DNA from: a bacterium
GTDB lineage: Bacteria; Margulisbacteria; Marinamargulisbacteria; GCA-2716485; JAYNIM01
DNA length: 64,000 nucleotides
Direction: 5' to 3'
NCBI GenBank assembly: GCA_038109055.1
Contig: JAYNIM010000001.1
Span: 427,365 to 491,364, forward strand
The position numbers were made by a program, and so were the translations under genes. This document shows, piece after piece, positions 6,300 to 41,105 of the stretch. Position 1 is the stretch's first letter, and every line of letters starts with the position of its first letter. Below the pieces are notes generated by a model. It was not told the DNA's origin. It did no database searches and saw only the letters and a list, made by a program, of their open reading frames with translations.

Positions 6300-7607
6300 T
6301 TACTCCATTTTTTCACTACATATTTTCTGAAGCGTTTGCTCAAATATTTGTTTATATCCCTTACACTCACTGATTGGATGTGCAAACTCTTGTAATTTAT
6401 TAGAATAATCCATGTATTTTTTACTATGACCTTGAAGAATATCTGACAGAGCGATTCTCATTGATTCCTTACTGTTACAAATATTTGGATAATCATCTAA
6501 TAATAAATGTTTTAAATGTGGATTTTTAAGTGTTTGATTTATGTGCAATGTATCTGGCCAATTATTATCAAAACTAAATTTAATTTGTATAATTGGGGTC
6601 TTCGTAAATGATGCTTCAAGCACAATGGTTGAACTAAAGTTAATGACACACAATGCATGTGATAATTGATTCTTTTTCTTTACCAAATCATCTTCAGTCA
6701 ATTTATAAGGATCCCATTTACTTGGAATGGGGTCTAGTTTTATACCTGATTCAACTAAATTAGTATACCAATTCATATCAATAATAAAGGGATATGGACG
6801 CACAATTAATTCTACTGATGAGTCAATTGTATTCAACATATTTTTTATTCCTAGAATGTTTATCACTTCCTGTTCAACATGCTCTCTTATTCCATGAGCA
6901 CAGACGTATAGAACATACTTTTGTTTTTTGTACTCATCTATATCTCTACTTTTATTTTCAATTAAATAATCAAATTGAAGAGGGCCTACAATATGAATTT
7001 TTGATTCCGATATCATATGATATTTTTTTAAATCATTTTTATTTTCTTTATTCCACACAAAATAATAATCAGCTCCTTTAATAGATTCGTTATCCTTCAT
7101 AGGATTATCCCAACTATATATCCAATTAATAATTTTCAATTTTCTTCGTCTTGCTTCATGCACAATGAAATATGATTTAATTGATATTGGAGAATATAAA
7201 AAATAAGAATAATTATTTAAAAAATCATACTCTTTATATGTAAATGGATATACCCATTTATAAATTTGTGCAACAGAACAATTAAAAAAAATCATTTTCT
7301 GATAATATTTTTTAATAAATAGCATTATTTTCATGATTAAATTAGTGTTGTAGAATTGCCTTTTATTTCTATACAATCTATTGTTTGTGTTTAACGGCTT
7401 AACTAATAGACATTTTAGTAACCCTCTAAATATTCGTCTTTTCTGTTTTGGTTTAATTAAAAATGTTTTAAGAATTTTGTGATATCGTTCATATGTTCTT
7501 TGATCATGTGTCACAATCGTTAAATCAACATTATTTTTCAGATGATCTATTAACTGTGCTTTCTCAAGCCGATTTCCGTCATCAATAAAATATAACACCT
7601 TAGTCAT
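6300..7607 (-). CDS. Hypothetical GT-B-like protein, candidate sialyl/nonulosonate transferase
   Basis: YSWDN, FVWN, IVGPLQFD, VRPYP, SSTIVLEA motifs resemble TagF-like/GT-B proteins; 8-nt overlap with neuA. Confidence 0.5.
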   Translation of the reverse strand: MTKVLYFIDDGNRLEKAQLIDHLKNNVDLTIVTHDQRTYERYHKILKTFLIKPKQKRRIFRGLLKCLLVKPLNTNNRLYRNKRQFYNTNLIMKIMLFIKKYYQKMIFFNCSVAQIYKWVYPFTYKEYDFLNNYSYFLYSPISIKSYFIVHEARRRKLKIINWIYSWDNPMKDNESIKGADYYFVWNKENKNDLKKYHMISESKIHIVGPLQFDYLIENKSRDIDEYKKQKYVLYVCAHGIREHVEQEVINILGIKNMLNTIDSSVELIVRPYPFIIDMNWYTNLVESGIKLDPIPSKWDPYKLTEDDLVKKKNQLSHALCVINFSSTIVLEASFTKTPIIQIKFSFDNNWPDTLHINQTLKNPHLKHLLLDDYPNICNSKESMRIALSDILQGHSKKYMDYSNKLQEFAHPISECKGYKQIFEQTLQKICSEKME

Positions 7608-8271
7608 TTTGTGCTATCAGTGCTTCTGCTATATAAAAATCGTCTTCTTCATCAATATCGAGACTATCTATTTTTGACATTTCATAGCCGATTATTTTCC
7701 CCCCAAAGATGGCGTAGTTTAATTGCTCTCGTTTTGTTATATAGATAGCCGCACCGTTTCGTGCCAAATAATTAGGTTTATCTTGACGTCTAAGTTTATA
7801 ATTTTGAACACAATTTACAATATAAGAACCTTCTACTTTCATCATAGCCTCTGGAACCATATTGTGAGGAACTTTAACTACCGACACTAAGCTATCTGCG
7901 TGTTCATCTTTTTCGAATAAAGAAATCGCTGCATTGATATGTTTATATGTACGTAATGGTGACGTAGGTTGTAGAGTGATGATCGCATTATATTGTTCTG
8001 CATATTGCCCCAAGGCATGTTGTATTACTGGTAAGGTTGGCGTATCATCTTTTGCCAATTCTGATGGACGCATAATGACTGAAACACCCAAGCTTTCTGC
8101 AATGCTGGCTATTTCTTTATCATCAGTAGATACGACCACCTCATTAATTATTGATTGCTGTGCCGCCTCAATGGTGTACTGTATTAATGGCTTTCCATTC
8201 AATAACTTTCTGTTTTTATATTTGATCCCCTTTGATCCGCCTCTGGCAGGAATTATGGCTAAATACTTCAT
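7600..8271 (-). CDS. neuA: CMP-N-acylneuraminate synthetase
   Basis: IIPARGGSKGIKYKN, VSTDD, LQPTSPLR, RRQD, NGAAIY, SLDIDEEDDF. Confidence 0.92.
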   Translation of the reverse strand: MKYLAIIPARGGSKGIKYKNRKLLNGKPLIQYTIEAAQQSIINEVVVSTDDKEIASIAESLGVSVIMRPSELAKDDTPTLPVIQHALGQYAEQYNAIITLQPTSPLRTYKHINAAISLFEKDEHADSLVSVVKVPHNMVPEAMMKVEGSYIVNCVQNYKLRRQDKPNYLARNGAAIYITKREQLNYAIFGGKIIGYEMSKIDSLDIDEEDDFYIAEALIAQND

Positions 8272-9423
8272 TTAATACGTAATGGTTTTTTGAATACTTA
8301 CAGAATCAGTTGCTAAAATAGTCGCAATTTTTGTTCCAGCGCTTCCATCCCCGTACAATGGACTTGATTTGTATTTTCCATGTTCCATTTGTTTAAGTAT
8401 GGCATCTTTAATTTGCTGCTTATCATACGTCACATCCATCACATTATCAGATCGATCTCTTTGGTTTTGTCGTGTTCCAATATTTACTACTGGGGTTCCA
8501 ATAAAGGCCCCTTCTCTAACACCAGAGCTACTATTTCCAACCAAACACTGCGTTTGATTCATTAAATGAATGTAGGTTGCCGTTGGTAAATTTTTAAATA
8601 CTTGCAGCCATGTTGGTTTGTGGGTTTCTCTAAATGATCGAATACCTTTTGAAATATCATCACTACCCGCATCTGCATTTGGCCATAAAAGTATCGTTGG
8701 TATTTTTATATCATTGAGTGCATTCAAGGTTTCTTCAATTTGGCGACGATTATCACCAAACTCTGTTGTAACGGGATGTTGAGATACAAGTAAGAAAGGC
8801 TGATTAAAATCAATACCCATCCCTACTCCTTTGTAACCTTTGAACAACTCATTTAAATCGCCTTTATTTTTTAACTCGATTCGAATTAAATCCATTCGTG
8901 GACACCCCACGTTATACACATGCTTTGGATCCTCTCCCATCTTTATAATACGTTTTTTTGCCTCTTCATTAGCTGGAAAATGATAATGAGCAAACTTTGT
9001 TATAGCATGACGAATACTTTCATCTATAGTACCAGTGACTTCCCCTCCCATGGTATGCGCAACCGCAATATTCATGTAAGCGGCTGCAATCGTGACAGCC
9101 ATTACTTCAAATCGATCGCCTACAACAACGACCACATCCGGTTTTAAATTATTAAAGATCATCGACATTTCTATCATGCCTAGACCTGTTGATTTTGCCA
9201 TAGTTGTTGGATTCTCTCCTTCAACTAGGTTATGAAAGGTAAAATCTGGTTTAAAGCCATCTTCTCGTATTAATTGATCCACATTCCCAAAACGTTCTAA
9301 GATTGCAGATGCCCCAGTAACCACCTGAAGTGTTAACTTAGGATGTTTTTTTATGGCTCTCATGACAGACTTAATACTACTGTAGTTAGCTCTTGAACCA
9401 ACAAAAACACATATTTTTTTCAT
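8272..9423 (-). CDS. neuC: UDP-N-acetylglucosamine 2-epimerase (hydrolysing)
   Basis: GSRANYS, GDRFE, HTMGGEVTGTIDESIRHAITK, GNSSSG, GTRQ. Confidence 0.92.
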   Translation of the reverse strand: MKKICVFVGSRANYSSIKSVMRAIKKHPKLTLQVVTGASAILERFGNVDQLIREDGFKPDFTFHNLVEGENPTTMAKSTGLGMIEMSMIFNNLKPDVVVVVGDRFEVMAVTIAAAYMNIAVAHTMGGEVTGTIDESIRHAITKFAHYHFPANEEAKKRIIKMGEDPKHVYNVGCPRMDLIRIELKNKGDLNELFKGYKGVGMGIDFNQPFLLVSQHPVTTEFGDNRRQIEETLNALNDIKIPTILLWPNADAGSDDISKGIRSFRETHKPTWLQVFKNLPTATYIHLMNQTQCLVGNSSSGVREGAFIGTPVVNIGTRQNQRDRSDNVMDVTYDKQQIKDAILKQMEHGKYKSSPLYGDGSAGTKIATILATDSVSIQKTITY

Positions 9424-9444: not shown

Positions 9445-11298
9445 TTAAGTCGCGTCTATTTTGAAGCTAATTTCTGAAATAATTTGTTTTTTTTGAACAT
9501 CCGTCAAGCCATGCTTATTCATTGCAGTTTCAAGAGACTCTGAATGAGCGAGCTCACAGCTATGACAATATAAACCAAAACGATTTAAAACTTTAACCGA
9601 ATCACACCCATATGTTCTTATTATTTCTTCTACTGAAGTGTTTAAGAGTACACCCCCCTCCTTTAAATTTTTATCTGATTTTTTATAATAAGGAGCTTGC
9701 AATAATCGCCAAAAGCCAACTTTATATTCATCGTTTTCTCTAAAAAAACGACACCAATATCCAACAAATGCTTCATCCCATGACAACTTCTCATCTAAAA
9801 TTAGATTAAATATGCAAATTGGAATGTTAATTTGTATGTGCAAATCTTCTAATTGCACCGGCCCTAAATATCGAAGCTTACAATCTTTGATTTCTATATA
9901 TAAGGTTTTTAATGTCTCATAGTCCATATTTGTCAAATTAAATCTAATAGTAGTATTTTCACAAAACTTAATTTGAGGACAATTATTTAAATCTAAAAAA
10001 TACTTCCTGGACACTTCCTCATTAAACACATTATTTCTCTTAAAAAGCTTATTAAATTCACGACTATTAAACTCTTTAATTGCAAACTTTTTCAGAATAT
10101 CTTTGTTATAAATTTCTTTTGACAGTTTTTTCTTTCTCTTTATTTTTAATTTTTCAACATTCCACTCATCACCTGGAAACCAGTCAATTACTTTAAAGGA
10201 CTCCTTATTTAGTCTCTCTTTAATATCAAATATATTGTTTCTTATGATTTTCTCTAGAAATTCAATGTGAGTTGGATGACAAAATGTTATATGACTCGCA
10301 AAAGGAACAAAATATTTTGCGCCATATATATCCATTGCATGCCTAATTTGTTCAATACGTCCATTATTTGAATCTACCATAAATTGATGAGCATCTTTAT
10401 TTGAAACACTATTCCAAGTTAAGGGGTACCCCGAGGCTCCAAAAGAAAAAGTGGATGAAACAACATCAACTGGAAATACTTTATTCACTAAATTTTGATT
10501 AATCCCGGCATCGTTTAAATTTAGCCATTTAAAACTACCAAATTGAAAAAGTATTATACTATCATTCCAAACGCCCTTTGGCTCGAAAAAGGTCACTTCA
10601 AGATCTGACTCTATAGACATTTTTTTCCCAAAACTTGGAATCAAAATATGTTTAAATCCTAATTTTTCCAAACTATTTTGCATACGTTGATTTGGAAAAT
10701 CAGGAATTAATATAGGAATATTTTTATTAATCTTTTTTAACGTAGGAATATGAAAGTGATCAGAATGTTCATGTGTAATTATTATATAATCAACAACAAT
10801 TTCTTCTGGAAGTATAGTATTTTTAGGGTATTGATACCATGATCCCAAAAATGCCGGGCCACTTAACCAAGGGTCTGTCATAATTTTTGTCCCTTTATAA
10901 TTAAACTCTATGCACGCATGTGAATGAAGTACACAATTTAAACCTGACACCCAGTGATCCGATTTTTTTTTAATATCATTTTTTCTAATTAAGTCAGTAT
11001 TTTTAACAAAAAGCTCATTCCCTTCCTTTAAAATAGGAACATTTCTTAACTCTTGATTTTCAATATTTTTTGACTTTCCTGTATGCTTATCAAATTTCCA
11101 AAAATGTACTGGACATACTAAACAATCATCATTCAATACAACTTTTCCACCCATATGCGGACATTGATTAGATAAAAGTTGAAAGCCACGCTCTTCTGAG
11201 TAAACTAAAAAATAATTTTCTTTGTAAATTTTAATATTTAAAGGACACTGTTCTTTAATTTCTGTATTAGCAATTTTAATTTTTTCGAATTGCGTCAT
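9445..11298 (-). CDS. CMP-N-acetylneuraminate hydroxylase (CMAH) homolog: Rieske + metallo-beta-lactamase fold + C-terminal CxxC (DUF1858-like) domain
   Basis: Rieske CPH...CPVH; SHAC...DPWLSGPAFLGSW; THEHSDH; GASGYPLTW; PFAS...HP; SWDEAFVGY...FW, all colinear with animal CMAH as I recall it; tail GLYCHSCELAHSESL. Confidence 0.85.
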   Translation of the reverse strand: MTQFEKIKIANTEIKEQCPLNIKIYKENYFLVYSEERGFQLLSNQCPHMGGKVVLNDDCLVCPVHFWKFDKHTGKSKNIENQELRNVPILKEGNELFVKNTDLIRKNDIKKKSDHWVSGLNCVLHSHACIEFNYKGTKIMTDPWLSGPAFLGSWYQYPKNTILPEEIVVDYIIITHEHSDHFHIPTLKKINKNIPILIPDFPNQRMQNSLEKLGFKHILIPSFGKKMSIESDLEVTFFEPKGVWNDSIILFQFGSFKWLNLNDAGINQNLVNKVFPVDVVSSTFSFGASGYPLTWNSVSNKDAHQFMVDSNNGRIEQIRHAMDIYGAKYFVPFASHITFCHPTHIEFLEKIIRNNIFDIKERLNKESFKVIDWFPGDEWNVEKLKIKRKKKLSKEIYNKDILKKFAIKEFNSREFNKLFKRNNVFNEEVSRKYFLDLNNCPQIKFCENTTIRFNLTNMDYETLKTLYIEIKDCKLRYLGPVQLEDLHIQINIPICIFNLILDEKLSWDEAFVGYWCRFFRENDEYKVGFWRLLQAPYYKKSDKNLKEGGVLLNTSVEEIIRTYGCDSVKVLNRFGLYCHSCELAHSESLETAMNKHGLTDVQKKQIISEISFKIDAT

Positions 11299-12274
11299 TT
11301 TTTTTGTAATTACAGGTAAGTTTTATTCCAATTAAATCTTGATATTCTTTTGCACTCAAACCGTCCATTGGCTTCTTAAATGTCAAATCTTCCTCTTTAA
11401 TAACCGTACCTTTAGGTAAATCTCTTGCGGCTACAATCATTTTCTCAAAGGTTTTTTTCATTTCTACTAAATCTTTTGCCTTTTGATCTTTATCAACGTC
11501 ATGAGTCAAGGCTTTCTCTACCTCTCTAATGGCAACAACCAATGATTTAAATTCATCTGGTTCTGAAGAAAACTGAGCATCGCTTCCATACATTTTTTTA
11601 GACAATGTAAAGTGTTTTTCTATAACAGTTGCACCTTTGCATACAGCTGCTATAGGAATTGCATTTCCACGTGTATGATCAGAATAGCCTATGTTGTGCA
11701 TAGGATATTTTTTTCTTAAGTCATCTAAGATATTCAACCCTGCATTTTTAGGCAAACACGGATAATCTGACGTACATTGAAGAATGGTTAAATCAGCACA
11801 ACCATGTTTTGTTAGATAATTTACTGCTTCGTCAATTTCTTTATAGGTACTCATACCTGATGATAATAAAACTGCTTTTTTTGTTTGTGCTATTTTTTTA
11901 AGCATGGGTAAGTTTGTCACTTCACCAGAGGCTATTTTATATGTTTTTACTTTTATTGCTTCTAGTAGGGCAACGGCTTCATTAGAGAAAGGCGAAGCTA
12001 AAAATTCTAGTTCACAGTCTTTTTCGGCGTATTCTTTTAGTTTGCGCCAATTTTCTTGTGTAAAAGAGGTTCGTTCAAAGTACTCTCTACGGGTTTCGTC
12101 TTTAAAATACGGTGGGTTTGGAGCTGAGTCTAAACTTTCAGCATCAAAAATATGTATTTGAAACTTTACTGCATCGACACCACATTCTGAAGCGGATTTG
12201 ATAAACTGCTTCGCTAAGCCTAGTGATCCTTCATGTGTGTTGCCTATTTCGGCGATAATTTTTACTACTGACAT
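11276..12274 (-). CDS. neuB: N-acetylneuraminate (nonulosonate) synthase
   Basis: IIAEIGNTHEG, DAVKFQ, KIASGE, QCTSDYP, GYSDHT, IEKHFT, C-terminal SAF/AFP-like domain. Confidence 0.92.
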   Translation of the reverse strand: MSVVKIIAEIGNTHEGSLGLAKQFIKSASECGVDAVKFQIHIFDAESLDSAPNPPYFKDETRREYFERTSFTQENWRKLKEYAEKDCELEFLASPFSNEAVALLEAIKVKTYKIASGEVTNLPMLKKIAQTKKAVLLSSGMSTYKEIDEAVNYLTKHGCADLTILQCTSDYPCLPKNAGLNILDDLRKKYPMHNIGYSDHTRGNAIPIAAVCKGATVIEKHFTLSKKMYGSDAQFSSEPDEFKSLVVAIREVEKALTHDVDKDQKAKDLVEMKKTFEKMIVAARDLPKGTVIKEEDLTFKKPMDGLSAKEYQDLIGIKLTCNYKKNDAIRKN

Positions 12275-24589: not shown

Positions 24590-25342
24590 CTAAACACTCC
24601 AGCCATCATCTATAATAATATTTTGACCAGTAATATATTTAGAATTATCTGATAATAAAAATAATATACTACTAAATAAATCTTCTGGATTTAACATTCC
24701 TTTATAATTACAGTGACTTTTGTATTTATTTAAAAAACTTTCTGGCTGTTTATCTAAAACACCTCCTGGACTAATTCCATTAACTTGAATATTTTTTCCT
24801 TTATAATACTTTGCTAAGTACTTTACAACTGCGTTTATCCCTGATTTTATTGCACTATATTCTATTGGAGATGTCATCTCTGTTCCTTCGTATATATCAA
24901 ACTTTGGAGTAAAGGTTCCATAAATTGACGAAAAATGTATTAAGTTACCTGAGCCCTTTTTCTCGAAATAGGTAAGTATCTGTTGTGAGAATAAAATAGC
25001 GCTACCTAATTGACCATATAAGTCTGTCTTTAGAGACTCTTCCTCTAATTCCTCAAAACGTACTCCCCACGTTTTTGACCTTGGATATGCACAGTGTATA
25101 GCTGCATCAATCTTTCCAAAGTGAGAATCTGCTTTTTCAATACTTACCGCTATATCTTTTTTTTTTGTGATATCAGTTTTGACAAATAAAGAATTACTAC
25201 CCATATCTTTTTCCATTTGCATACCAACATTTGTATTCATATCACATAAAATAAGTTTCGCTTTTTGTTTAGATAAAAACTCTGAAATGCTTTTTCCTAT
25301 TAAACCAGCTGCTCCTGTCACTAAAATAACTTTATCTTTCAT
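24590..25342 (-). CDS. SDR oxidoreductase, PtmA/ElaC-like
   Basis: TGAAGLIG, CAYPR, SSIYG, EYSAIK, SPGG, GQNIIIDDG; probable start MKDKV at 25342. Confidence 0.85.
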   Translation of the reverse strand: MKDKVILVTGAAGLIGKSISEFLSKQKAKLILCDMNTNVGMQMEKDMGSNSLFVKTDITKKKDIAVSIEKADSHFGKIDAAIHCAYPRSKTWGVRFEELEEESLKTDLYGQLGSAILFSQQILTYFEKKGSGNLIHFSSIYGTFTPKFDIYEGTEMTSPIEYSAIKSGINAVVKYLAKYYKGKNIQVNGISPGGVLDKQPESFLNKYKSHCNYKGMLNPEDLFSSILFLLSDNSKYITGQNIIIDDGWSV

Positions 25343-26033
25343 TGAAATTTGTTCTCCTGTTATATAAAAATGCAGCGATATCAAAATCTAAAGGCGTATC
25401 AATATCGATAGCACGCTCCTCTGGGATTTCTACATACTTTACTTCGCCATCAAAGATACTTTTTTTATTTAAAATTGATTGAACATGAGCCGCATAGGCC
25501 ACCGTTGTTATATTAAATGCCTTGGGTGCATCTTGCCGTCTAACTACTGTATCTTCACTATCTAACATCAATTTTACATTATCATTTATTTTTTGAACCA
25601 TATTGAAATAAGGGGAATGATTTGTATTTGTAATCGTAATGACAAAATCTGTAGTATTATCTAAACACTCGATTGTTTTTTGAATATCATTTTTATTTCG
25701 TAATGGAGATGTTGTTGGTAAAGAAATAAATCTATCGAAATTATCATTGCATTCTTGTAAATACAAAATAGCATGCCTCCAAGCGTCATACTCAGATGCA
25801 GTATCAGTCGCTAAGTCTTGCGGTCTTTTAATGACGTCAGCTGAATACTGTTTAGCAATTTTCTCTATTTCGTCATCATCGGTAGAAACAAATACTTTTT
25901 TAATTTCACTCATGTTCTGTGCTAAAAGAATTGAATAGGCAATTAGTGGCTTTCCATTAAATAATTTAATATTTTTTCGAGGGATACCTTTTGATCCACC
26001 TCTAGCAAAGATAAATGCGTAATTCTTACTCAT
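25332..26033 (-). CDS. CMP-legionaminate-type acylneuraminate cytidylyltransferase (LegF/PtmB-like)
   Basis: FARGGSKGIPRKN, VSTDD, TSPLR, RRQD, DIDT. Confidence 0.88.
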   Translation of the reverse strand: MSKNYAFIFARGGSKGIPRKNIKLFNGKPLIAYSILLAQNMSEIKKVFVSTDDDEIEKIAKQYSADVIKRPQDLATDTASEYDAWRHAILYLQECNDNFDRFISLPTTSPLRNKNDIQKTIECLDNTTDFVITITNTNHSPYFNMVQKINDNVKLMLDSEDTVVRRQDAPKAFNITTVAYAAHVQSILNKKSIFDGEVKYVEIPEERAIDIDTPLDFDIAAFLYNRRTNFNER

Positions 26034-26991
26034 AGGTTTGATTTTTACACAAAGATATCATTCTTAGTATGTTAATACCATCATCAATAGTCACTTTTGG
26101 AATTTCTACTCCTTCTACACACTTTATAAAATGTTTAAACTGTTTCAAAAAGATATCATTTCTTTCATAATTATTTGCCTTAATTGTCACTACTTTATTA
26201 TTTTCTTCAAACGTTATTTCCTTTTTTAACAAATTACAATGTAACTCTCCATTAATAGTAACAACTCTACATAATCGTTTACTTTCTTTTCTACAAAAGT
26301 CTATATTAATTTGTATAGGATACCCCTCTTTTGATTGAGCTAGTATCACTGCATGATCCTCAACATTGATATTTAATGTATTTGAATTTCTTGTAATTGC
26401 TGAAATAATTTCAGTTAAATCAAATATCCATTTTGCATAATGTAGTTCATGACTTAACTCTAATAATACGCCACCTCCAAGCTCTTTTTTGGCTGATACA
26501 GTATTTGTATAATCTTGATCGGGCCTCCAATCAGGTAGGTATGACCCACATTCAATATGTACACTCAATATATCCCCATATACTTTAGAATCAATTAATT
26601 GTTTTAATTTCATCAAATTTGGATCATAACGGAGTGTATATCCTACCAGTAAAACTAACTTAGAGTCATATGCAATTTTTTTTAAAGCCTTTATTTGTGT
26701 AGAATCTGCACACGCTAATGGCTTTTCAATTAATAAGTGAATGCCCTCTTTAGCCAATTGTATTGCTTGATCTATATGAAATGATGCTGGTGAAGCAATA
26801 ATAGCTGCTTGTATATCTAAAGTAATAGCTTCCTCAATGGTTCTAACTAAAATAACGTTTTTTGTTGTATACTCAATTTTTTTCTTTGAACTAACAATGA
26901 CGACTTCGATATATGGAAAGTATTGACTGATAACATCAAAGTGCCTTTTACCTATACTGCCTAAGCCAATAATTCCAATTTTTTTAATCAT
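26026..26991 (-). CDS. Gfo/Idh/MocA oxidoreductase, PtmF/ElaA-like
   Basis: GLGSIGKRH, EKP, YLPDWRP, GGGVLLELSHE. Confidence 0.85.
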   Translation of the reverse strand: MIKKIGIIGLGSIGKRHFDVISQYFPYIEVVIVSSKKKIEYTTKNVILVRTIEEAITLDIQAAIIASPASFHIDQAIQLAKEGIHLLIEKPLACADSTQIKALKKIAYDSKLVLLVGYTLRYDPNLMKLKQLIDSKVYGDILSVHIECGSYLPDWRPDQDYTNTVSAKKELGGGVLLELSHELHYAKWIFDLTEIISAITRNSNTLNINVEDHAVILAQSKEGYPIQINIDFCRKESKRLCRVVTINGELHCNLLKKEITFEENNKVVTIKANNYERNDIFLKQFKHFIKCVEGVEIPKVTIDDGINILRMISLCKNQTYE

Positions 26992-27003
26992 GATTAATAA
27001 TAA

Positions 27004-28341
27004 TTATGTTTTTAAATTTTCTAGCAAATCAGAATATCTTTGAATTACCTTACCGTCAAAAACTTTATCTTTAGATAATTTCATCCAATCACTTTTAAAA
27101 TCTTTTTTAATATTAAGATTTTTTTTAATTTCATCCAAAAGTTTATTTTTATTTTTAGAAAAAGTAATATTGTCTAAACTATTAAACCAAGCACCATATA
27201 AATTATAATAGTCTAAAATAATACTATTTATTCCTAAATAAAAAGGCCATATCATAGTGGATGAATTAATTGAAAGAAATAAATCTGCTATTGGCAAACT
27301 CTCAGCTAAGCTTTCTTTCAGAATAATGCATTTATATTTTTTTTCTAAAAACCTATATTCTTCAAATTGCATTTTGGGATGTAATGATAATAAGACAGAT
27401 TCTTTGCTCTTACAGCATGTATCCACTAAAAAATTGATCTCTTCCCAATGCTCCTTTTTGGATAGTGTTTTCTGTTCTAGTAACTGAGGTAATGCACACA
27501 TAATAATTTTATTTTTAGGATTTAAATCATATTTATCAATATAGTGTTGTTTTATATTATTTTTTGATGATTCATAAAGAATTTGATGGTTAATATCACC
27601 TATTATTTTCAATTTCTCTTCAGGTACTCTATTTTCTTTATATCGATTAAATGTCATTAAACTATCAATACACACAACATCTACTAATCCATTTCCTATG
27701 TACCAAGGATACTTGCTTAAAACACCGAACCATTTTAATGCTAAAAAGATATTAGGTGTATAATAAAAATATTTTTTACTTTGGTATGTAAAAACGTGAT
27801 CTTTATAAAGAAAGAACAATAATTTAACAATTAATGGGCTATAAAACTTTAGTTGAAGTAAATACGAATTTGATATTAAACTTACATCGTCTGAAAGACA
27901 ATAATAAGGGCAGATACTTTTGATATTTAATTTTTTAGCAATTTTTAATATTACAGCTTCCGTGTTTCCGTGTCTGTCTCCGTTTAAAATAATAGCGTCA
28001 AACCTTTCTTTTTTAAATCTTACTAACAACCAATGATAATATTTTTTAAGTTCATGATATAAAAATATAGCTTCAATTAATACGCTTACAGAATAGAAAG
28101 TTCTTCTAATTAATCTTAACAAAAATGTTTGTCTTATTTCAGTAAAAAAAAAATTAAAAAACCAATTATTTCTTAATTTTTCCAATAAAATAACTTTATA
28201 TGGCATTACATCTTTAATCATAGATTCAGAGTCTATTAAAAAATAAAAATCCAAATTTTTATTATAGCTAGACAGCATTTTAACCAAATCTAACTGAACT
28301 CTTGTTCTTTGTTTCATACTGCTGTGGACTAATATTTTCAT
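27004..28341 (-). CDS. Hypothetical GT-B-like protein, candidate legionaminate transferase
   Basis: Located within the Leg operon; GDRH, IIGD, LHPK, SST motifs. Confidence 0.5.
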   Translation of the reverse strand: MKILVHSSMKQRTRVQLDLVKMLSSYNKNLDFYFLIDSESMIKDVMPYKVILLEKLRNNWFFNFFFTEIRQTFLLRLIRRTFYSVSVLIEAIFLYHELKKYYHWLLVRFKKERFDAIILNGDRHGNTEAVILKIAKKLNIKSICPYYCLSDDVSLISNSYLLQLKFYSPLIVKLLFFLYKDHVFTYQSKKYFYYTPNIFLALKWFGVLSKYPWYIGNGLVDVVCIDSLMTFNRYKENRVPEEKLKIIGDINHQILYESSKNNIKQHYIDKYDLNPKNKIIMCALPQLLEQKTLSKKEHWEEINFLVDTCCKSKESVLLSLHPKMQFEEYRFLEKKYKCIILKESLAESLPIADLFLSINSSTMIWPFYLGINSIILDYYNLYGAWFNSLDNITFSKNKNKLLDEIKKNLNIKKDFKSDWMKLSKDKVFDGKVIQRYSDLLENLKT

Positions 28342-28430
28342 AATTAAACTCTATACTTTTTTATAAAACTTAATATGTAAATTTCACGACAATATTTTAC
28401 TAATTGATAATATTTTAAAAAATCTTTAAT

Positions 28431-29711
28431 TTAAGTATTAAATTTATCATCTACACCATCTTTATTTACCGTATGACGTAACTTCCAACCAGAGCTCTCT
28501 TTTTTCCACAAGTGAGGAGACCTAAAAGTATCACATAAGTCATGAAACTCTTCAGTATTCATACTTATATACTCTAAAAACTCATTAAAATATCTCTGAG
28601 GTAATTCTCCATCAAACTTTTTAATTAAAGCACGGCCTTCTTCAGGTGTTATTTTTTGATTACGACACTCTTGAGCTGAGTCTTGCATCGCTCTTCCCAT
28701 ACCAAATTTAATATAAGATGTGTAATAAAAATAACCATCTATTTTGTCGTCAAGACTATTATACTTTGAATATGTGCCCTCAGTACGAACAGGATTTGCT
28801 TTAAAATCTATTTTATCTACTGAGAAATAATAACACTCTTGTGGGTCCCACTTTAGATAATATCCTAAATAATGAACATCTATTTTCTTTTTCTCTTCAA
28901 TTTCACTACTCAATGGTGTGTAAGCAAGTAAGTCATTTTTCTCTACCTTGTATTTCTTAATTAACTCTTCACCAGATACTCCACCAAAAAACAATTTTTC
29001 TGGATCAGTTTCATTTTTCTCAAAACCATGCCCCGCATCATTAAATGTTCTCTCACCTGCTGTTTTAGACTTTGTTATATTTCCATACTCACCTGGCATT
29101 TCACCGTAAAAAGCGAGAGGAATATTAAATTGAGCGCACATTTTCTTTACATATGTTTTTTGCCCCATAATAAAAGGTTGAAAAGGATGTAACATATTTA
29201 TCGTTGCCAAACGCGTTAATAAGCGGTGTGTTTTTCCATTTGGTGTAAACAAGAAATTATCAAAACCGCCTTTATGAATCCAATTCTGAAAATTATTCCA
29301 CCCTACTTCTGTATATAAATGAGGTGACCATGTAACGGTAAGTGGATGCATATTATATTTATATTTCAGCATCCAAGCAGCATATACACTATCCTTGCCT
29401 CCACTTCCAGGAACAATACAATCATAAGAACCATCTTTAGATCTGTATTTATTACATAAAGCGTTTAGCTCTTCTTCGCGTTCTTTCCAATCAATATCTT
29501 TATGTTGTTTTTCTTTATGTAAACACGCAGAGCACCTTCCCTCTTCATTAAAAGGGATTGTTTTTTTCTGAGAAGACTTATTATGTAAAAACTCATTTGT
29601 AGAATTTGGACGTTGATTTGTCATATTGCAACTTGAACAAAATAAAACCTTTCTGGGTAACCCATACTTAACTTCAAGATCATTTTGATTTAGTACTAAT
29701 TTTTTATTCAT
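28431..29711 (-). CDS. N-acetyl-sugar amidotransferase (WbuX/PtmG/PseA family)
   Basis: CSSC...CSAC, SGGKDS PP-loop, HPLTVTW, YGE, KFGMGRA; adjacent to hisH/hisF paralogs; start could also be 29723. Confidence 0.85.
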   Translation of the reverse strand: MNKKLVLNQNDLEVKYGLPRKVLFCSSCNMTNQRPNSTNEFLHNKSSQKKTIPFNEEGRCSACLHKEKQHKDIDWKEREEELNALCNKYRSKDGSYDCIVPGSGGKDSVYAAWMLKYKYNMHPLTVTWSPHLYTEVGWNNFQNWIHKGGFDNFLFTPNGKTHRLLTRLATINMLHPFQPFIMGQKTYVKKMCAQFNIPLAFYGEMPGEYGNITKSKTAGERTFNDAGHGFEKNETDPEKLFFGGVSGEELIKKYKVEKNDLLAYTPLSSEIEEKKKIDVHYLGYYLKWDPQECYYFSVDKIDFKANPVRTEGTYSKYNSLDDKIDGYFYYTSYIKFGMGRAMQDSAQECRNQKITPEEGRALIKKFDGELPQRYFNEFLEYISMNTEEFHDLCDTFRSPHLWKKESSGWKLRHTVNKDGVDDKFNT

Positions 29712-30348
29712 TTTTTTCTCCAAACTTTATAAAATTCTCAACTATCTGAATCCCAACCTTTGCACTTTTTTCAGGGTGAAACTGACAACCATATACATTT
29801 TTATTTCTAATAACAGAAGCAAACATATGATTATGGTAACTTGTATTTGCAATTACTTGATTTTGGTTATATAGGTCACAAAAAAAGGAATGAACAAAAT
29901 AAACCTCATCTCCTACTAAATTATCTAGTATATTACCTTCCCATTCAACTCTATTCTTAAGTAAGCGATTCCATCCAATATGTGGCACTTTTTTATCATA
30001 CATGTTATCTTTTTTTTCAAATTTTAATGGTTTAACTACCCCAGAAAATAATGAAAGGCCTTTTGTTTCACCAAATTCCAAACTTTTATCTAACAGCAAT
30101 TGCATCCCTAAACAAATTCCTAATATAGGTACTCCTTTATTTGCTAAGTCTTTTAAGACTATATCTAAACCTCTTTCTTTTAGACCCTTCATACCATCAA
30201 TGAAAGCGCCAACTCCTGGCAAAATAACATGAGAATACTTGGTCATATCAGTAGCTGTATTAATAACTTCATAGTCTAAAGATAAAAAAGACAAAACATT
30301 TTCAATGCTTTTCATATTACTTAACCCGTAATCTATTATTGCTATCAT
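29704..30348 (-). CDS. HisH-like glutamine amidotransferase (WbuY-type, glycan locus)
   Basis: IDYG, LPGVGAF, GICLGMQ, YFVHS, QFHPEKS. Confidence 0.88.
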   Translation of the reverse strand: MIAIIDYGLSNMKSIENVLSFLSLDYEVINTATDMTKYSHVILPGVGAFIDGMKGLKERGLDIVLKDLANKGVPILGICLGMQLLLDKSLEFGETKGLSLFSGVVKPLKFEKKDNMYDKKVPHIGWNRLLKNRVEWEGNILDNLVGDEVYFVHSFFCDLYNQNQVIANTSYHNHMFASVIRNKNVYGCQFHPEKSAKVGIQIVENFIKFGEKNE

Positions 30349-30350
30349 AA

Positions 30351-31103
30351 TTACTCCGTCTCCATAGATGCTTTCAAATCAGCTATTGATGAAATATTGT
30401 AGTGAAAAATCGAAGCACAAGCTACCGCACTAATTGGAAATTTTTTATAAAGAGAAGAAACATGATCAACTGAACCAGCTCCACCACAGGCAATAACAGG
30501 AATAGGAACTTTTGATGCAATTTTTTCTACTAAATCTTCTTCAAACCCTTTTTTGGTTCCCTCTCTATCAATAGATGTAATTAAAAGTTCTCCCGCACCC
30601 AAATCAACAACTTCTTTTGCCCAATTGATTGCATCTAAATTTGTAGACTCTCTTCCTGTATCTACATAACTCTCCCAAGAGTCACCTTTTTTTTTGGCGT
30701 CAATAGAAACAACAATACATTGGCTTCCAAAACGATTTGCAGCTTCAGATATTAAGTTTGGATTTCGAACAGCTGCAGTATTTATAGCTACTTTATCAGC
30801 ACCTAACCTTAAGACCTTTTCAATATCACCTAAATTTCTCAAGCCTCCACCCACTGTTAAAGGAACAAATAGTTTTTTTGCAACTTTTTCTACGATTAGA
30901 TCAAGACTATTTCTTTCATAAAGACTAGCCACAGCGTCCATAAAAATAATTTCATCTGCACCTTCATTGTAATATTTTTGTGTTAACTCAGTTGGATTAC
31001 CAACTACACGTAAACCTTCGAGATGAATCCCTTTTATAACCGTATCATTTTTAATATCTAATCTAGGTATAATTCTAAAATTTTTAAGTCGTTTGGTAAT
31101 CAT
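30351..31103 (-). CDS. HisF-like cyclase-fold protein (WbuZ-type, glycan locus)
   Basis: IPRLDIK, KGIHLEGLR, VGGG, GAGELLITSIDREGT. Confidence 0.88.
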   Translation of the reverse strand: MITKRLKNFRIIPRLDIKNDTVIKGIHLEGLRVVGNPTELTQKYYNEGADEIIFMDAVASLYERNSLDLIVEKVAKKLFVPLTVGGGLRNLGDIEKVLRLGADKVAINTAAVRNPNLISEAANRFGSQCIVVSIDAKKKGDSWESYVDTGRESTNLDAINWAKEVVDLGAGELLITSIDREGTKKGFEEDLVEKIASKVPIPVIACGGAGSVDHVSSLYKKFPISAVACASIFHYNISSIADLKASMETE

Positions 31104-32229
31104 AAAACTCTTTATTTGCCATTTTAATCATTTCTATTTCAGATAATTTTTCAATAATACGCTTGCTTGCTCCACCTTTACCAAAAGGAAAATCTTTTTT
31201 AATATTTTTATTCTCAACTTGACTTATCTTTTGGATTATTTCCTCGTCATCAAAACTGCATGATAATATAGAGTCTAATTGCAATCGTCCAGTTTGTCTA
31301 TTTCCAATATTTATTGTTGGAATACCCATCATGGGAGCTTCTGTCATGCCACTTGATGAATTACCTAACATGCAAAAAGCATTTTTTAATAAGGATATAT
31401 AACGTTTAAAACCTAAAGATTCAACAATCACACATCTTCTATGTTCTAAGTTCAAAAATTCTCTAACTTTATTTCGAATAATCATATTACCAGGATCTGA
31501 ATTTGGCATTGTAAAAATAACTTTGTATTCAGGTAATTTTTTTAACGCATTTAGCACGCTTTCTATTTGCTTTTCAACTAACACAACGCTTGAAGTTTCC
31601 GGATGAAGCGTACAAATTATAAACTCTTTGGGATAAAGCGACAGCCCAAGTTGTTTAGAAAGCTCATCCAACCTCTCTAATTTCAATTTATTAATTACAT
31701 CAACTACTGGCGCACCAAAATTAAAAACTGTATTTGGATGTTCTCCCATTCTTATTAGACGTTCTTTGTAAAACTGGGTTACGGGAAAGTGTAAGGATGC
31801 CATTTTTGAAATAGAGTGTCTAAACCCTTCATCTAATGCCCCTTTAGTGACTTCTCCACCATGAATATGTGCTATAGGGATGTTTAGTGTATATGCAGTA
31901 ATTGCAAGAGCTAATATCTCATATCTATCGCCAAGCAACAGTAACATATCAGGCCTTAGTTCTTGTAAGACAGCAGTGAATTTAACAATACATCTCGCTA
32001 TTATATTGGGCAATAATTCATCTTCAACGAGTTCTAATGGAATTTGATGATGAACCAAAGTATTATCCGACAGAATTTCTTGTATAGTATAGCCATACTC
32101 CTTCTCCAAATGTGTTCCTGTTACTAATAGTTCAAATCTATTACCTGAATTTTCTGCTTCATTTATTACTTCCTTAAGTAATCCATAGTCAGCTCTTGTA
32201 CTAGTAACAATAATAACTTTATTTGACAT
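31084..32229 (-). CDS. legG: Hydrolysing NDP-diacylamino-sugar 2-epimerase (LegG/NeuC family)
   Basis: TRADYGLL, TGTHL, GDRYE, HIHGGE, GNSSSG; probable start MSNKV at 32229. Confidence 0.85.
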   Translation of the reverse strand: MSNKVIIVTSTRADYGLLKEVINEAENSGNRFELLVTGTHLEKEYGYTIQEILSDNTLVHHQIPLELVEDELLPNIIARCIVKFTAVLQELRPDMLLLLGDRYEILALAITAYTLNIPIAHIHGGEVTKGALDEGFRHSISKMASLHFPVTQFYKERLIRMGEHPNTVFNFGAPVVDVINKLKLERLDELSKQLGLSLYPKEFIICTLHPETSSVVLVEKQIESVLNALKKLPEYKVIFTMPNSDPGNMIIRNKVREFLNLEHRRCVIVESLGFKRYISLLKNAFCMLGNSSSGMTEAPMMGIPTINIGNRQTGRLQLDSILSCSFDDEEIIQKISQVENKNIKKDFPFGKGGASKRIIEKLSEIEMIKMANKEFYDYQTT

Positions 32230-33316
32230 CTTTTGCATTGATTCGCTTAACATATTCATTATATTCATCAATTTGTCCTAAGTCTGTCCATGAATTTTCT
32301 GAAATCGGAAAACTTTTTACACTATTCTTTTCTAGAATTACACGTTCTATTAAACTAGTCATATCAAAATATTGATCTTTTGGTATAAAATCCAGCACTT
32401 TTTTATTTAAAACATAAAAGCCTATATTTACTAATAAATCTATCTCTGGTTTTTCAGAAATTTTTTTTACTATTCCACTTTTTTTAATATCAACTACACC
32501 ATATGGAATTTTAAAATGTTTTAAAGATGAAACACTTGTAATTAGATTATTCTCTGATTCATGAAAATCAACAAGTTCCTTAATGTTAAAATCAGTAAAT
32601 ATATCACAGTTAGTCACTATGAATGTATCTGACAGTTTATTTGTAATCAAATTAAGAGAACCAGCTGTGCCCAAAGGTTTATTTTCTTGAAAAAATATTG
32701 AATTTTTATTAAATGTGTCAGTTTGAAAAAATGATCTTATTAAATCTGCCTTATAATTAAGCGATACAAAAAATTGATCGCACCCATATGTATAAAGCTT
32801 ATTCATAATATGTTTAATCATTGGTTTCCTATTAATAGGAATTAATGGCTTTGGAATAATATCAGTATAAGGCGCCATTCTAGTTCCCTTACCACCAGCC
32901 ATAATAACAGCTGGACATAACTTAGAATGTTTTTCTTGAAATATAGAATCTTTAAAACAATCATCCCAAAAAATACAATCTACAACTTCTTTGTCTTTGT
33001 TTAAAACGGGCACCCCTTCTAACCTTTGATTTATAAGAACTTTTTTAACTTCGTGCATTGATGATTCGTCTATCTTATTTAAATGAAGATTATGAACTTT
33101 TGGATTTTTATTCATAATCCTTACTATTTTTTCATCTAATGTTTTGCCGTCCAATAGTTCTCGTCTAATATCTCCGTCAGTAACTACACCAACTAACTTT
33201 TTCTTATTCATGACAAGAATCATTTTTTTTCCTGCCTTATCCATGATTCTCCAAGCAGATTTAATACTATTTGTTTCTTCGCAAAATAAATCTTTCAATC
33301 TTCTGTGGTTTTTCAT
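32219..33316 (-). CDS. CBS-domain sugar-1-phosphate nucleotidyltransferase (PtmE/LegX-like)
   Basis: TDGDIRR CBS region; MAGGKGTRM, PKPL, PLGTAGSL, NCD, IPYGV. Confidence 0.88.
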   Translation of the reverse strand: MKNHRRLKDLFCEETNSIKSAWRIMDKAGKKMILVMNKKKLVGVVTDGDIRRELLDGKTLDEKIVRIMNKNPKVHNLHLNKIDESSMHEVKKVLINQRLEGVPVLNKDKEVVDCIFWDDCFKDSIFQEKHSKLCPAVIMAGGKGTRMAPYTDIIPKPLIPINRKPMIKHIMNKLYTYGCDQFFVSLNYKADLIRSFFQTDTFNKNSIFFQENKPLGTAGSLNLITNKLSDTFIVTNCDIFTDFNIKELVDFHESENNLITSVSSLKHFKIPYGVVDIKKSGIVKKISEKPEIDLLVNIGFYVLNKKVLDFIPKDQYFDMTSLIERVILEKNSVKSFPISENSWTDLGQIDEYNEYVKRINAKDVK

Positions 33317-34332
33317 GATATTTCAGGATTAATTAATTGATCTTCTTCATAAAACTTATCTGCTTTAATTCCAATTACTTTATCCCATTGCATTGGACTA
33401 AGCCCTGTTCCTGGTCGTTTACATATTAAATTATCTTCAGTAAACACTTCTCCTTTCTTAATGCGTCTTTTTGCCACAATACTTTTACGAACAATATTAA
33501 TATTTTTAAGTTCAGATTTAGCTGGCTGCTTCACCCCGTTACCCATAGCCTTTTCAACTTCTCTTATAGCCTTGACCATCTGTTCTAATTCATCAGGCTC
33601 CAGAGATGCTTGATGATCTGGACCTGGTAATGTTTTATCAAGTGTAAAGTGTTTTTCAATAATAGTTGCACCCATGGCTACGGCTGCTATTGGCACTGTG
33701 ATTCCTGATGTATGATCTGAATATCCGACAGGCAACCCAAACTCTTTTTTTAAGGTTTCTATGGCCTTTAAATTAACATCTTCAAATGGACAGGGATATT
33801 CGCTTGTGCAGTGAAGTAATGATAAATGTGATCGATCAAGCCCTGATTTAAACAAAAAATTTATGGCAAATTCAATTTCTTTCAGTGTGCACATTCCGGT
33901 AGAAAGTATCGTCTTTTTATTTAATTGACCTATTTTTCTTAAATAAGGTATATGCGTAATCTCTCCAGATGGTATTTTACATATTGGAAGTTTTAATTGA
34001 TTTAAATAGTCAATACTCTCACAGTCAAACGGTGATGATAAAAATAAAATATCTTTTTGCTTGCAATAGTCGATTAATTCAAGATGCATGTCATGAGTTA
34101 ATTCTAACTTCAATAACATATCAAATTGACTTTCTGAAGAAGACGTTTTTTGGTTTTGATAAGCTGCTTTTTGTGCGTCTAATGACGCTAATGTCTCCGC
34201 TTTAAATGTTTGGAATTTTATCGCATCTACCTCTGCTATGACTGCTAAATCAATGAGTTTTTTTGCTAATGATACGTCACTATTATGGTTTACACCTGCT
34301 TCAGCGATGATAAATGTGCGTTTATTACTCAA
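33313..34332 (-). CDS. legI: Legionaminic acid synthase (NeuB family)
   Basis: IAEAGVNHN, KFQTF, HCTSEYP, GYSDHT, GPDHQASLEP, KRPGTG. Confidence 0.88.
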   Translation of the reverse strand: MSNKRTFIIAEAGVNHNSDVSLAKKLIDLAVIAEVDAIKFQTFKAETLASLDAQKAAYQNQKTSSSESQFDMLLKLELTHDMHLELIDYCKQKDILFLSSPFDCESIDYLNQLKLPICKIPSGEITHIPYLRKIGQLNKKTILSTGMCTLKEIEFAINFLFKSGLDRSHLSLLHCTSEYPCPFEDVNLKAIETLKKEFGLPVGYSDHTSGITVPIAAVAMGATIIEKHFTLDKTLPGPDHQASLEPDELEQMVKAIREVEKAMGNGVKQPAKSELKNINIVRKSIVAKRRIKKGEVFTEDNLICKRPGTGLSPMQWDKVIGIKADKFYEEDQLINPEIS

Positions 34333-35215
34333 ACCTATCTCCTACTTTAAATTTAGCATCGTAAGAGTAGTCTACTATGTTTATGAATGTATCTTTTGTT
34401 TTGACTAAAAAACTATTGCTATCTTTATATAAAATTGTTCCTGGTACACCAATATATGATTTTGCCCCTTTTACTTCTATTGCTTTATTAATTTTCATTT
34501 CCTTACTCTTTAAGAAAGCTCTAGCTTCAGGACCTGGTCTGCATATCGCCCTGATAAAATTAAAAAGTTGTCTACTAGACTGATTCCAATTAATTTTTTC
34601 GTCTCCAATAATTCTTGCTGAACAATAAAAGCCAATGGGATCAATGTCATTCTGCTTTAATCTTGGAACAGGTCCTGATTTAAAAAATTCTAAGGTTTCA
34701 TAAAGTGCAATAGCACATTCTTTATGTGCGACTCTTAATAAAGAGCTGTAATCATCCTGATCCGTAATTTCAAATGTTTTCTGTAATATTATATCACCAG
34801 TATCTACCCCCTCATCCATATAATGGACCGTTATTCCAAACTCCATCTCATCATTTATAAGTGCCCAATTTAAAATATTTCTTCCCCTGTAGTAGGGGAG
34901 TTTACCGGCATGACAATTAATTGTTTTTAAACGAGGTAAATTAATAATTTGATTTTTAAAAATTTGATTAAACGACATTGATACATACAAATCACAATTA
35001 TACCCTTTAATTACTGAAATAAACTCTTGCGAATTTATATCTTGATGCTTTAAATACGCTATATTGTATTGTTCTGAATATTTTTTTAACGTTTCATCTT
35101 TAGTATCATATCTAACACATATAAATTTTATGTTTAAATACTTATCTTTTATAATTTTCTCAAATGCCCGATGGCTCCAAGGTCCATCAGCAAAATAGCC
35201 TATATTTATTAACAT
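34325..35215 (-). CDS. Sugar N-formyltransferase (Fmt-like)
   Basis: INCHAGKLPYYRG, GITVHYMDEGVDTGDI; lies between legC and legI. Confidence 0.82.
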   Translation of the reverse strand: MLINIGYFADGPWSHRAFEKIIKDKYLNIKFICVRYDTKDETLKKYSEQYNIAYLKHQDINSQEFISVIKGYNCDLYVSMSFNQIFKNQIINLPRLKTINCHAGKLPYYRGRNILNWALINDEMEFGITVHYMDEGVDTGDIILQKTFEITDQDDYSSLLRVAHKECAIALYETLEFFKSGPVPRLKQNDIDPIGFYCSARIIGDEKINWNQSSRQLFNFIRAICRPGPEARAFLKSKEMKINKAIEVKGAKSYIGVPGTILYKDSNSFLVKTKDTFINIVDYSYDAKFKVGDRFE

Positions 35216-36369
35216 AAAACAACTGAGCTGGGTATATTAACCAATTTTAAAGCAAAATCTTTTGAATTCATTAATTCACTTTTGTAACAATCACTAAACA
35301 TCTCCAACTGACACATCAACTCCCAACACGGCCTTGTCATTACACCTTGTTTATTTGTCATCTCTAAAAAGATATCACGACTTTCCTGATCATTAAACAA
35401 TACTGTTTGTAGCCAATAATTAGACCTCGTATTATCTGGTTCTTGCACACATTTTATATCAAGGTCATCAAACAACGCTTGGTATGTTTTTGCTAGTTCA
35501 CGTTTTATATTAATTAATTGATCTAGGTGTTCCATTTGAGCACAGCCTAATGCGGCATTAATATTAGGCATCCGATAATTATAGCCTATTTCATCATGAA
35601 CATAATCCCATTGATGAGGTACTTTTGCAGTGGTTGTTAAATGTTTGGCTCGTTTTGCTAAATACTCATCATCCGTCACAATCATCCCTCCCCCACCTGT
35701 GGTAACTATTTTGTTGCCATTAAAACTAAATACACCCAGCTTACCAAACGTGCCTGTATGTTTATTTTTATATAAACTCCCTAAAGACTCGGCAGAATCC
35801 TCTACGACCGGTATATCAAATTGGTCACAAACATCGACTATTTTATCTATCTCTACTGGATGGCCAAAGGTATGCATGGGCACACAGGCTTTGATGATTT
35901 TATTGGTATGGATATTTAGTAAGCCTTGGGCTGTTTTTTTTGTTGATGATTTTAAAAAAATTTCGAGTTTTTCTGGGCACATCCCTAATGTGTGTTGAGA
36001 AATATCTATAAACACTGGGTCTGCGCCACAATATTTTATGGCATTACAGGTAGCAACAAAGGTTAGAGGCTGTGTAATTACTTCTGTATTTTCTTCTACT
36101 CCGGCTAACAATAAAGCGATATGTAAAGCAGCAGTCCCATTCACCGTTGCAATCGCAAACTTAACACCTGTATAGCTTGCTATCATGTGCTCAAACTGAT
36201 CGACATACTTCCCTACTGATGAAACAAACGTTGAGTCAATGCAATCAGCTAAGTATTTTTTTTCATTTCCATTAAAACTTGGTTCATGCAATGGGATAAA
36301 ATCTTTATTTGGAAACTGATCCCGTATAAAATCAATAATCACCTGACACTGATCTAGAAAACTAGACAT
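35209..36369 (-). CDS. legC: LegC-family PLP aminotransferase
   Basis: IPLHEP, STFVSSVG, SFNGNKIVTTGGGG, GYNYRMPN; probable start MSSFL at 36369. Confidence 0.9.
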   Translation of the reverse strand: MSSFLDQCQVIIDFIRDQFPNKDFIPLHEPSFNGNEKKYLADCIDSTFVSSVGKYVDQFEHMIASYTGVKFAIATVNGTAALHIALLLAGVEENTEVITQPLTFVATCNAIKYCGADPVFIDISQHTLGMCPEKLEIFLKSSTKKTAQGLLNIHTNKIIKACVPMHTFGHPVEIDKIVDVCDQFDIPVVEDSAESLGSLYKNKHTGTFGKLGVFSFNGNKIVTTGGGGMIVTDDEYLAKRAKHLTTTAKVPHQWDYVHDEIGYNYRMPNINAALGCAQMEHLDQLINIKRELAKTYQALFDDLDIKCVQEPDNTRSNYWLQTVLFNDQESRDIFLEMTNKQGVMTRPCWELMCQLEMFSDCYKSELMNSKDFALKLVNIPSSVVLC

Positions 36370-40996: not shown

Positions 40997-41105
40997 GTAT
41001 ACGTGAAATGCGGTTATCACATCGCAATTTATGATTTTTTTTTCAGTAAGACTCTGATTATTAAATTTTGCTTTATATTCTGACTATATGCCATAATCAG
41101 AAATC

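Follow-up and report, generated by a model that had tools for sequence, protein, structure and literature searches.

How might a relative of the animal sialic acid hydroxylase be supplied with electrons in a bacterium that has no recognizable cytochrome b5? The question is raised by a 64,000-nucleotide stretch of contig JAYNIM010000001.1 (GenBank assembly GCA_038109055.1, Marinamargulisbacteria; positions 427,365 to 491,364 of the forward strand), called the window below, in which a minus-strand gene encodes a protein, P0001, resembling the animal enzyme CMAH (EC 1.14.18.2). The activity of murine CMAH is raised by NADH, b5 and b5 reductase (PMC4819959). An earlier, sequence-only reading of this DNA proposed that P0001 carries an extra C-terminal CxxC domain which may act, in place of b5, as a built-in electron-transfer or metal-loading module. 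The present analysis indicates, from sequence comparison, that P0001 is a distant member of the CMAH family and not an orthologue of the animal enzyme. It is probably a CMP-nonulosonate hydroxylase, and we lean slightly towards the fused domain being an electron-entry module; that both hold together, with the domain feeding electrons at the step taken by cytochrome b5 in animals, falls somewhat short of an even chance.

The core of P0001 has the architecture expected of the family. An N-terminal Rieske domain (PF00355, 40.8 bits, above cut-off) with the CxH...CxxH pattern precedes a metallo-beta-lactamase (MBL) fold with HxHxDH and two Asp residues, where MBL families match at residues 126-213 in Pfam, and homology extends along the whole length of animal CMAH, the C-terminal domain included. 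We take that last domain to be 'SCP2-like', a label that no search returned. Squirrel CMAH aligns to residues 30-534 at 21% identity (BLASTP, E 2e-25), and the best of 12 animal CMAHs reaches 24.7% (E 2e-34). P0001 has the domain order, all the Rieske and predicted di-metal ligands and the sialic acid context of animal CMAH, but it groups apart from the animal and algal branch, adds a DUF1858 domain and resides in a host whose genome gave no cytochrome b5 match. The PDB sequence matches of P0001 include no CMAH structure; the best for the MBL domain are the MBL-fold di-iron hydroxylases CmlA and FrsH (E 8e-6 and 6e-4), which have the same HxHxDH site but neither a Rieske nor a DUF1858 domain. 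CmlA and FrsH act on carrier-bound amino acids. An AlphaFold2 model of P0001 built from 119 sequences (pLDDT 89.9, pTM 0.89) places a small helical tail domain after a poorly defined linker at residues 539-545.

That tail comes close to the roughly 65 residues first noticed: about 83 residues follow the end of squirrel CMAH homology at residue 534, of which about 10 form the linker and about 70 the domain (the interval then singled out covers residues 547-617, and the peptide quoted, residues 555-598). The resemblance to DUF1858 and the redox-disulfide domain that had been proposed is borne out, if not by score alone. PF08984 matches residues 553-598 at about 24.4 bits when the tail is searched alone (E 3e-5) and at 22.9 bits within the whole protein, and TIGR03980 (NCBIfam) matches at 38 bits (E 1.2e-9); both lie below the curated cut-offs of 32.2 and 44.95. 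The CxxC and HG motifs are present, however, and all 58 sister tails match both families at E<=0.1 (best 2e-11 and 3e-15). A profile of these 58 tails finds the solved DUF1858 proteins 2K53 (E 5e-12) and 2K5E (E 9e-10). Folded alone, the domain reaches pLDDT 85.4, and Foldseek matches this model to 2K53 and 2K5E with probabilities of 0.99 and 0.93, with weak E-values. In a VIA fold search, where helical folds may reach middling Z by chance, 2K5E (Z 9.4), the N-terminal domain of YtfE (5FNN, residues 2-60; Z 8.8, root-mean-square deviation 1.7 A, 59 aligned), 2K53 (Z 8.4) and 2FI0 (Z 6.4) stand clear of the next row (Z 4.4). The tail thus has the GxxCxxC...E...HG motif and four-helix fold of 2K53, 2K5E and 2FI0, but it sits at the C-terminus of an oxygenase, whereas other DUF1858 domains occur alone or on other partners: Fe-S_biosyn (38% of one Atlas cluster), hybrid-cluster protein (Hcp), SufT (PMC4982691) and DrpB (PMC6282519).

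Several other accounts of the tail were discarded. An assembly artefact was rejected, as relatives at 81% and 63% identity carry the same tail; a cytochrome b5 or flavin domain was likewise rejected, PF00173, PF00970 and PF00175 being without a match in P0001 at E<=0.1. The nearby C565 was dismissed as a ligand on the ground that it is not conserved among the 120 best homologues. A search of the genome for further DUF1858 domains returned two weak matches below cut-off; it also missed the known domain, so other copies are possible.

Conservation of the Cys pair was a point on which the sequence-only reading had made its proposal depend. All 120 homologues aligned have C578, C581, G575 and H596; they are the best of 312 by a full-length score ranking that favours domain-bearing matches. 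As a check on that bias, 75 metagenome loci were fetched with core-only patterns and joined to L001, L110 and L111. CxxC...H is intact in 73 of these 78 loci; of the other five, two run off the end of a contig and the remaining three are chimeric or carry a frameshift. In a FastTree phylogeny of 125 rows, built on the core after removal of the tail, rooted only at the midpoint and leaving aside fragments and a single frameshifted row, a branch with SH support of 100 sets off 64 rows; the domain is present in 61 of these, and all 61 have CxxC...H. Opposite lie a bacterial clade II (27 rows) and a clade III of 34 algal, environmental and animal rows, the last numbering 12. The Rieske ligands and H127, H176, H178, D180, H181, D246 and D263 are nonetheless the most frequent residue at their positions (95-100%) in each of four groups (61 domain-bearing, 27 clade II, 22 other and 12 animal sequences). 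The architecture is indeed distinct within the family, as had been suggested, but it is not peculiar to this gene: the idea of a fusion unique to this genome was rejected, and the fusion marks a whole deep microbial branch, with Brevibacillus, Paenibacillus, Salinibacter and Moorena among the carriers that have names. Clade II has a different short C-terminal CxxC, which a pattern search found in 13 of its 27 rows and which all four GTDB loci carry. This CxxC-helix tail, seen at L002:7821-9608, L003:2752-4539, L004:7926-9584 and L005:7295-9004 and, among others, in P0198 and P0222, has no DUF1858 profile match, and by inspection the neighbours in the four loci are not neu genes.

A redox role for the domain finds precedents in two places. 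In two environmental ENA records that are 91% alike, P0275 (894 aa) and P0395 (895 aa), the CMAH core is followed at once by Cyt-b5 (residues 592-662), FAD_binding_6 and NAD_binding_1; the CMAH family therefore does fuse redox partners at this C-terminal place. They belong to the branch nearest animal CMAH, unlike P0001, and with heme and flavin modules are potentially self-sufficient; P0275 was not found in IMG/VR. A search for longer fusions (1081-3085 aa) gave one match and no reductase fusion, which is weak evidence; the match, P0425 (1166 aa), joins CMAH-DUF1858 to a PMT_2 membrane glycosyltransferase domain on one contig and may be real or an assembly join. The other precedent is the YtfE/RIC N-terminal domain (ScdA_N, DUF542), which has the same fold and is a small appended domain through which a di-iron enzyme gains a Cys pair, although its partner is a hemerythrin and not an MBL/Rieske oxygenase, and identity is 10%. 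In YtfE, Cys30 and Cys31 lie within 10 A of the di-iron site, and thiol-driven reduction depends on them (PMC9052748). DUF1858 is also recorded in a CxxU selenoprotein form (PMC9312934). NF009777 (ScdA) matches 6 of the 58 tails weakly (best E 0.019), and the likeness to YtfE may serve as a working analogy, which does not extend to sequence-family membership. The proposal of a built-in electron-transfer module thus gains in its redox part, made likelier by the YtfE fold, the CxxU form and the P0275 fusion, but a self-sufficient enzyme finds no support: there is no flavin or NAD(P)H-binding part, the domain is unable to replace b5 reductase, and a separate flavoprotein must bring NAD(P)H electrons.

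The window was said to hold no gene for b5 or ferredoxin reductase, which fits what was scanned, but candidate donors are encoded elsewhere in the genome. This genome (93% complete) has no PF00173 cytochrome b5 match; PF00175 and PF00970 occur together in a single 407-aa protein, which we take to be NqrF. It encodes COX1, thioredoxin, thioredoxin reductase (TrxR), a CxxC-less TrxR-like flavoprotein (L104, G000:C7:29157-30026) and a small free [2Fe-2S] Fer2 ferredoxin (L112, G000:C10:20604-20804), the last two being candidate trans donors. Around the relatives, Pfam found no b5, ferredoxin, thioredoxin or reductase in the 215 of 265 groups of open reading frames scanned (57 of 74 recurring groups and 158 of 191 single frames, of at least 70 aa), and tblastn with seven redox queries over the 78 loci (588 kb) gave no match. 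Fer2 was not seen in two phage fragments, which are only 24% and 11% complete.

On these grounds a route may be sketched in which NADPH, through TrxR and thioredoxin, would reduce the C578/C581 pair. The pair would cycle between dithiol and disulfide, recharged by the host thioredoxin system, and in each turnover would pass two electrons on to the Rieske and di-iron centres; in a close variant, an iron-bound form of the domain would use His596. Activation of O2 would then lead to hydroxylation of the N-acetyl methyl of CMP-N-acetylneuraminic acid (CMP-Neu5Ac); O2 dependence is our supposition, in a host that has COX1. What stands on observation here is the domain order, the invariant metal ligands common with animal CMAH, the invariant CxxC...H motif, the ScdA_N/DUF1858 fold of the model, the operon position and the lack of a b5 match in the genome.

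Several points weigh against it. A dithiol carries two electrons, at odds with a fully conserved, one-electron Rieske cluster, and the invariant His596 points to metal binding. The Cys residues of YtfE are adjacent and not spaced as CxxC, none of the 58 tails matches ScdA_N (PF04405) in Pfam, and the linker between core and domain is of low confidence in the model. Covariation (218 sequences, Neff 153, APC-corrected mutual information) gave no usable contact, with subclade signal dominant; Rieske-domain and MBL-domain pairs fell below expectation in the top 300 (3 vs 11 and 26 vs 38, respectively). Three rows inside the domain branch are without the domain, one apparently frameshifted and two ending soon after the core, and 14 of 27 clade II rows and all non-fused clade III rows, presumably functional, are without a C-terminal CxxC. 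The argument from absence made earlier is weak: b5 is lacking also in four of four searched genomes whose CMAH is without DUF1858 (completeness not given), although those four CMAHs all bear the short CxxC tail, and the genome's own ferredoxin and TrxR-like flavoprotein could supply electrons in trans. As to the hydroxylase itself, identity to animal CMAH is only 21-25% and the branch is separate.

The electron mismatch, taken with the invariant His, brings a metal-bound or loading role close behind electron entry. The domain would then use C578, C581 and H596 to bind iron or an Fe-S cluster and would load or repair the Rieske and di-iron centres, with a trans ferredoxin feeding the Rieske cluster. 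Although we regard this as rather unlikely, the His accompanies the CxxC in 2K53 and 2K5E as well, the fusions to Fe-S_biosyn, hybrid-cluster protein and SufT point the same way, and this genome has the free Fer2 protein and flavoprotein such a role would use. Yet animal and clade III CMAHs assemble the same centres without the domain, and true redox partners take its position in P0275. Selenocysteine substitution, moreover, is more usual at catalytic redox thiols, which counts against metal loading. A part lying off the electron path, such as a redox switch, lid or dimerization element that gates activity or guards the di-iron site, is less probable again. The flexible linker in the P0001 model would suit it, and the homologous domain of YtfE gates a channel to the di-iron site, forms intermolecular disulfides and has a Cys pair that is not needed when methyl viologen or safranin O donates the electrons (PMC9052748), but its strict conservation across a deep branch, phage-borne copies included, speaks against so accessory a function.

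The substrate is a separate matter, on which the gene block bears most directly. In a tight minus-strand block the order is neuB-cmah-neuC-neuA, followed by a 435-aa protein and AsnB-like and GT4 genes (Table 1). Neither a dehydratase nor an aminotransferase is encoded within the block, so that a Neu5Ac route fits, and the likely substrate here is CMP-Neu5Ac, supplied through the flanking neuB, neuC and neuA. It is quite improbable, though conceivable, that the branch hydroxylates a different nucleotide sugar or an acyl group (CMP-legionaminate from the second cluster of the window would be one candidate) or is an MBL hydrolase, in which case the role of the domain would be open. The branch does stand apart from animal CMAH, and many of its residues close to the active site are specific to the clade. 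The block neuB scores 345.8 bits against TIGR03569, below the cut-off of 399.65, is about equally close to the SiaC and PseI structures, and is distinct from the legionaminate-type neuB of a second, full nonulosonate cluster at 24.6-37.3 kb, so that the 64-kb window encodes two pathways. Among relatives, whose loci are partly redundant and not independent, neuA/B/C-like genes occur in 24 of 76 loci (18 of 36 among loci of at least 6 kb) and GT29 sialyltransferases in 8 of 76. Counting against a sialic acid substrate, 18 of 76 loci have a gap-pgk-tpi-secG context with no neu genes nearby, a PtmE-type gene of the kind seen in legionaminate clusters occurs in 6, and neither a neu nor a gap-pgk context surrounds the gene in 9 of the 36 long loci. 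Against these stand the position of the gene, wedged between neuB and neuC, the phage-like loci that pair it with nanE, neuB, neuA and GT29, and the retention of all Rieske ligands, which a hydrolase would not need. Within the gap-pgk group, a high-GC lineage has CMAH-DUF1858 between gap and pgk in a glycolytic operon (L061:398-4488, L036, L045, L027, L042, L066).

Table 1. Features of the CMAH-like gene and its surroundings, in window coordinates
Feature	Position	Strand	Remarks
CMAH-like gene (P0001)	9445..11298	-	617 aa; Rieske, MBL-fold di-metal, C-terminal alpha/beta and DUF1858 domains
Rieske [2Fe-2S] domain	11050..11268	-	residues 11-83; ligands C46, H48, C62, H65
MBL-fold domain	10144..10947	-	residues about 118-385; predicted di-iron site
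Predicted metal-site residues of MBL domain			H176, H178, D180, H181, D246, D263, H127
C-terminal alpha/beta domain of CMAH	9679..10026	-	residues about 425-540; common with animal CMAH to residue 534
Fused DUF1858/TIGR03980 (ScdA_N-fold) domain	9448..9663	-	residues 546-617, after low-confidence linker 539-545
CxxC	9556..9567	-	Cys578 (9565-9567), Cys581 (9556-9558)
Invariant His596 of DUF1858 domain	9511..9513	-	possible metal ligand
neuB-like nonulosonate synthase	11276..12274	-	PF03102; overlaps start of CMAH-like gene by 23 bases
neuC, hydrolysing UDP-GlcNAc 2-epimerase	8272..9423	-	TIGR03568 409 bits, above cut-off; 21 bases downstream of CMAH-like gene
neuA-like CMP-nonulosonate synthetase	7600..8271	-	PF02348 100 bits
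435-aa candidate nonulosonate transferase	6300..7607	-	overlaps neuA; from position and a weak GT-B-type match
Legionaminate-type cluster	24590..37348	-	legB, legC (above cut-off), formyltransferase, neuB, PtmE-type, neuC, hisF/hisH, WbuX amidotransferase, neuA

For the 435-aa protein, PF02350 matches below cut-off (E 2e-4) and no NCBIfam family does so at 1e-10; a promoter and terminator scan found no more than chance would give (39 vs 33.6+/-5.8). Acquisition of the block is likely, to judge from the composition of the gene (29.6% GC against 37.5% for the genome) and from its distribution: among 146 genomes of the phylum, a full-length match occurs only in this one, and one other has an MBL-only match. 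Plasmids gave 11 partial MBL matches only, and cultured phages no match.

A T4-like helicase (phrog_19, E 3e-126) does lie near the gene in two IMG/VR and two metagenome contigs. The marine phage or phage-like contigs L110, L111, L049 and L060 carry CMAH-DUF1858 with neuB, neuA and nanE, and similar phage-like loci are L032, L046, L056, L057, L059, L064, L073 and L075. The GT29 proteins of these loci are eukaryote-type sialyltransferases. L111 has nanE (above cut-off), neuB-like and neuA-like genes, together with what on inspection is a relative of the L046 GT29 protein. From their gene content, such loci look like a phage-borne sialylation and hydroxylation kit. A still broader reading, which we consider unlikely, is that a widespread branch of bacteria and marine T4-like phages makes N-glycolyl sialic acids de novo through a b5-free, thioredoxin-wired CMAH with an ScdA_N-fold Cys relay; under the same doubtful reading, the phage-like loci with nanE, neuB, neuA, hydroxylase and GT29 would amount to a whole kit for sialylation with N-glycolylneuraminic acid (Neu5Gc).

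The general view is that only deuterostomes synthesize Neu5Gc. Prokaryotic homologues of CMAH are nevertheless on record: 60 were listed as BLAST hits and not characterized (PMC5767959), some of which may belong to the P0001 branch, and others are noted in PMC4729200. In 2017, N-glycolyl modification was described as not yet reported in bacteria and N-glycolyl nonulosonates as merely suspected in Tannerella (PMC5378307), and the accessible parts of PMC8157484, PMC8208679 and PMC9558349 present no microbial Neu5Gc pathway. No paper on a DUF1858-fused CMAH, a phage CMAH or a b5 fusion was found in the open-access literature. Existing pipelines automatically annotate many such proteins as CMP-N-acetylneuraminate monooxygenase and list PF08984 on them, which moderates the surprise. 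What is new is the match of the domain to the YtfE N-terminal fold and the CMAH with b5 and b5 reductase fused at the same place. A bacterial CMAH that is soluble and comes equipped with an electron-entry domain, in an operon that points to its likely substrate, would make three open questions directly testable: whether microbes and phages synthesize Neu5Gc, how the Rieske and di-iron chemistry of CMAH is fed, and what DUF1858 does. Were the broader reading of bacteria and T4-like phages true, it would yield a microbial Neu5Gc pathway absent from the papers searched, tell what DUF1858 does and offer a soluble system in which to study the mechanism of CMAH, still unsolved.

A few further features were recorded. 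A second CMAH-like MBL protein of 476 aa (L023:1474-2904, on G000:C2) is without Rieske or DUF1858 domains. Divergent from neuB in the window lies a 553-aa gene (12361-14022, plus strand) that matches nothing in Pfam or NCBIfam at E 0.1. Within the glycan cluster, the minus strand at 18030-22133 encodes a DUF4956 protein, a VTC-domain protein and a 905-aa beta-helix protein. The plus strand at 38802-41840 carries a trio of UbiA, FAD_binding_4 oxidase and SDR genes, which presumably resemble those of decaprenyl-phosphoryl-arabinose synthesis.

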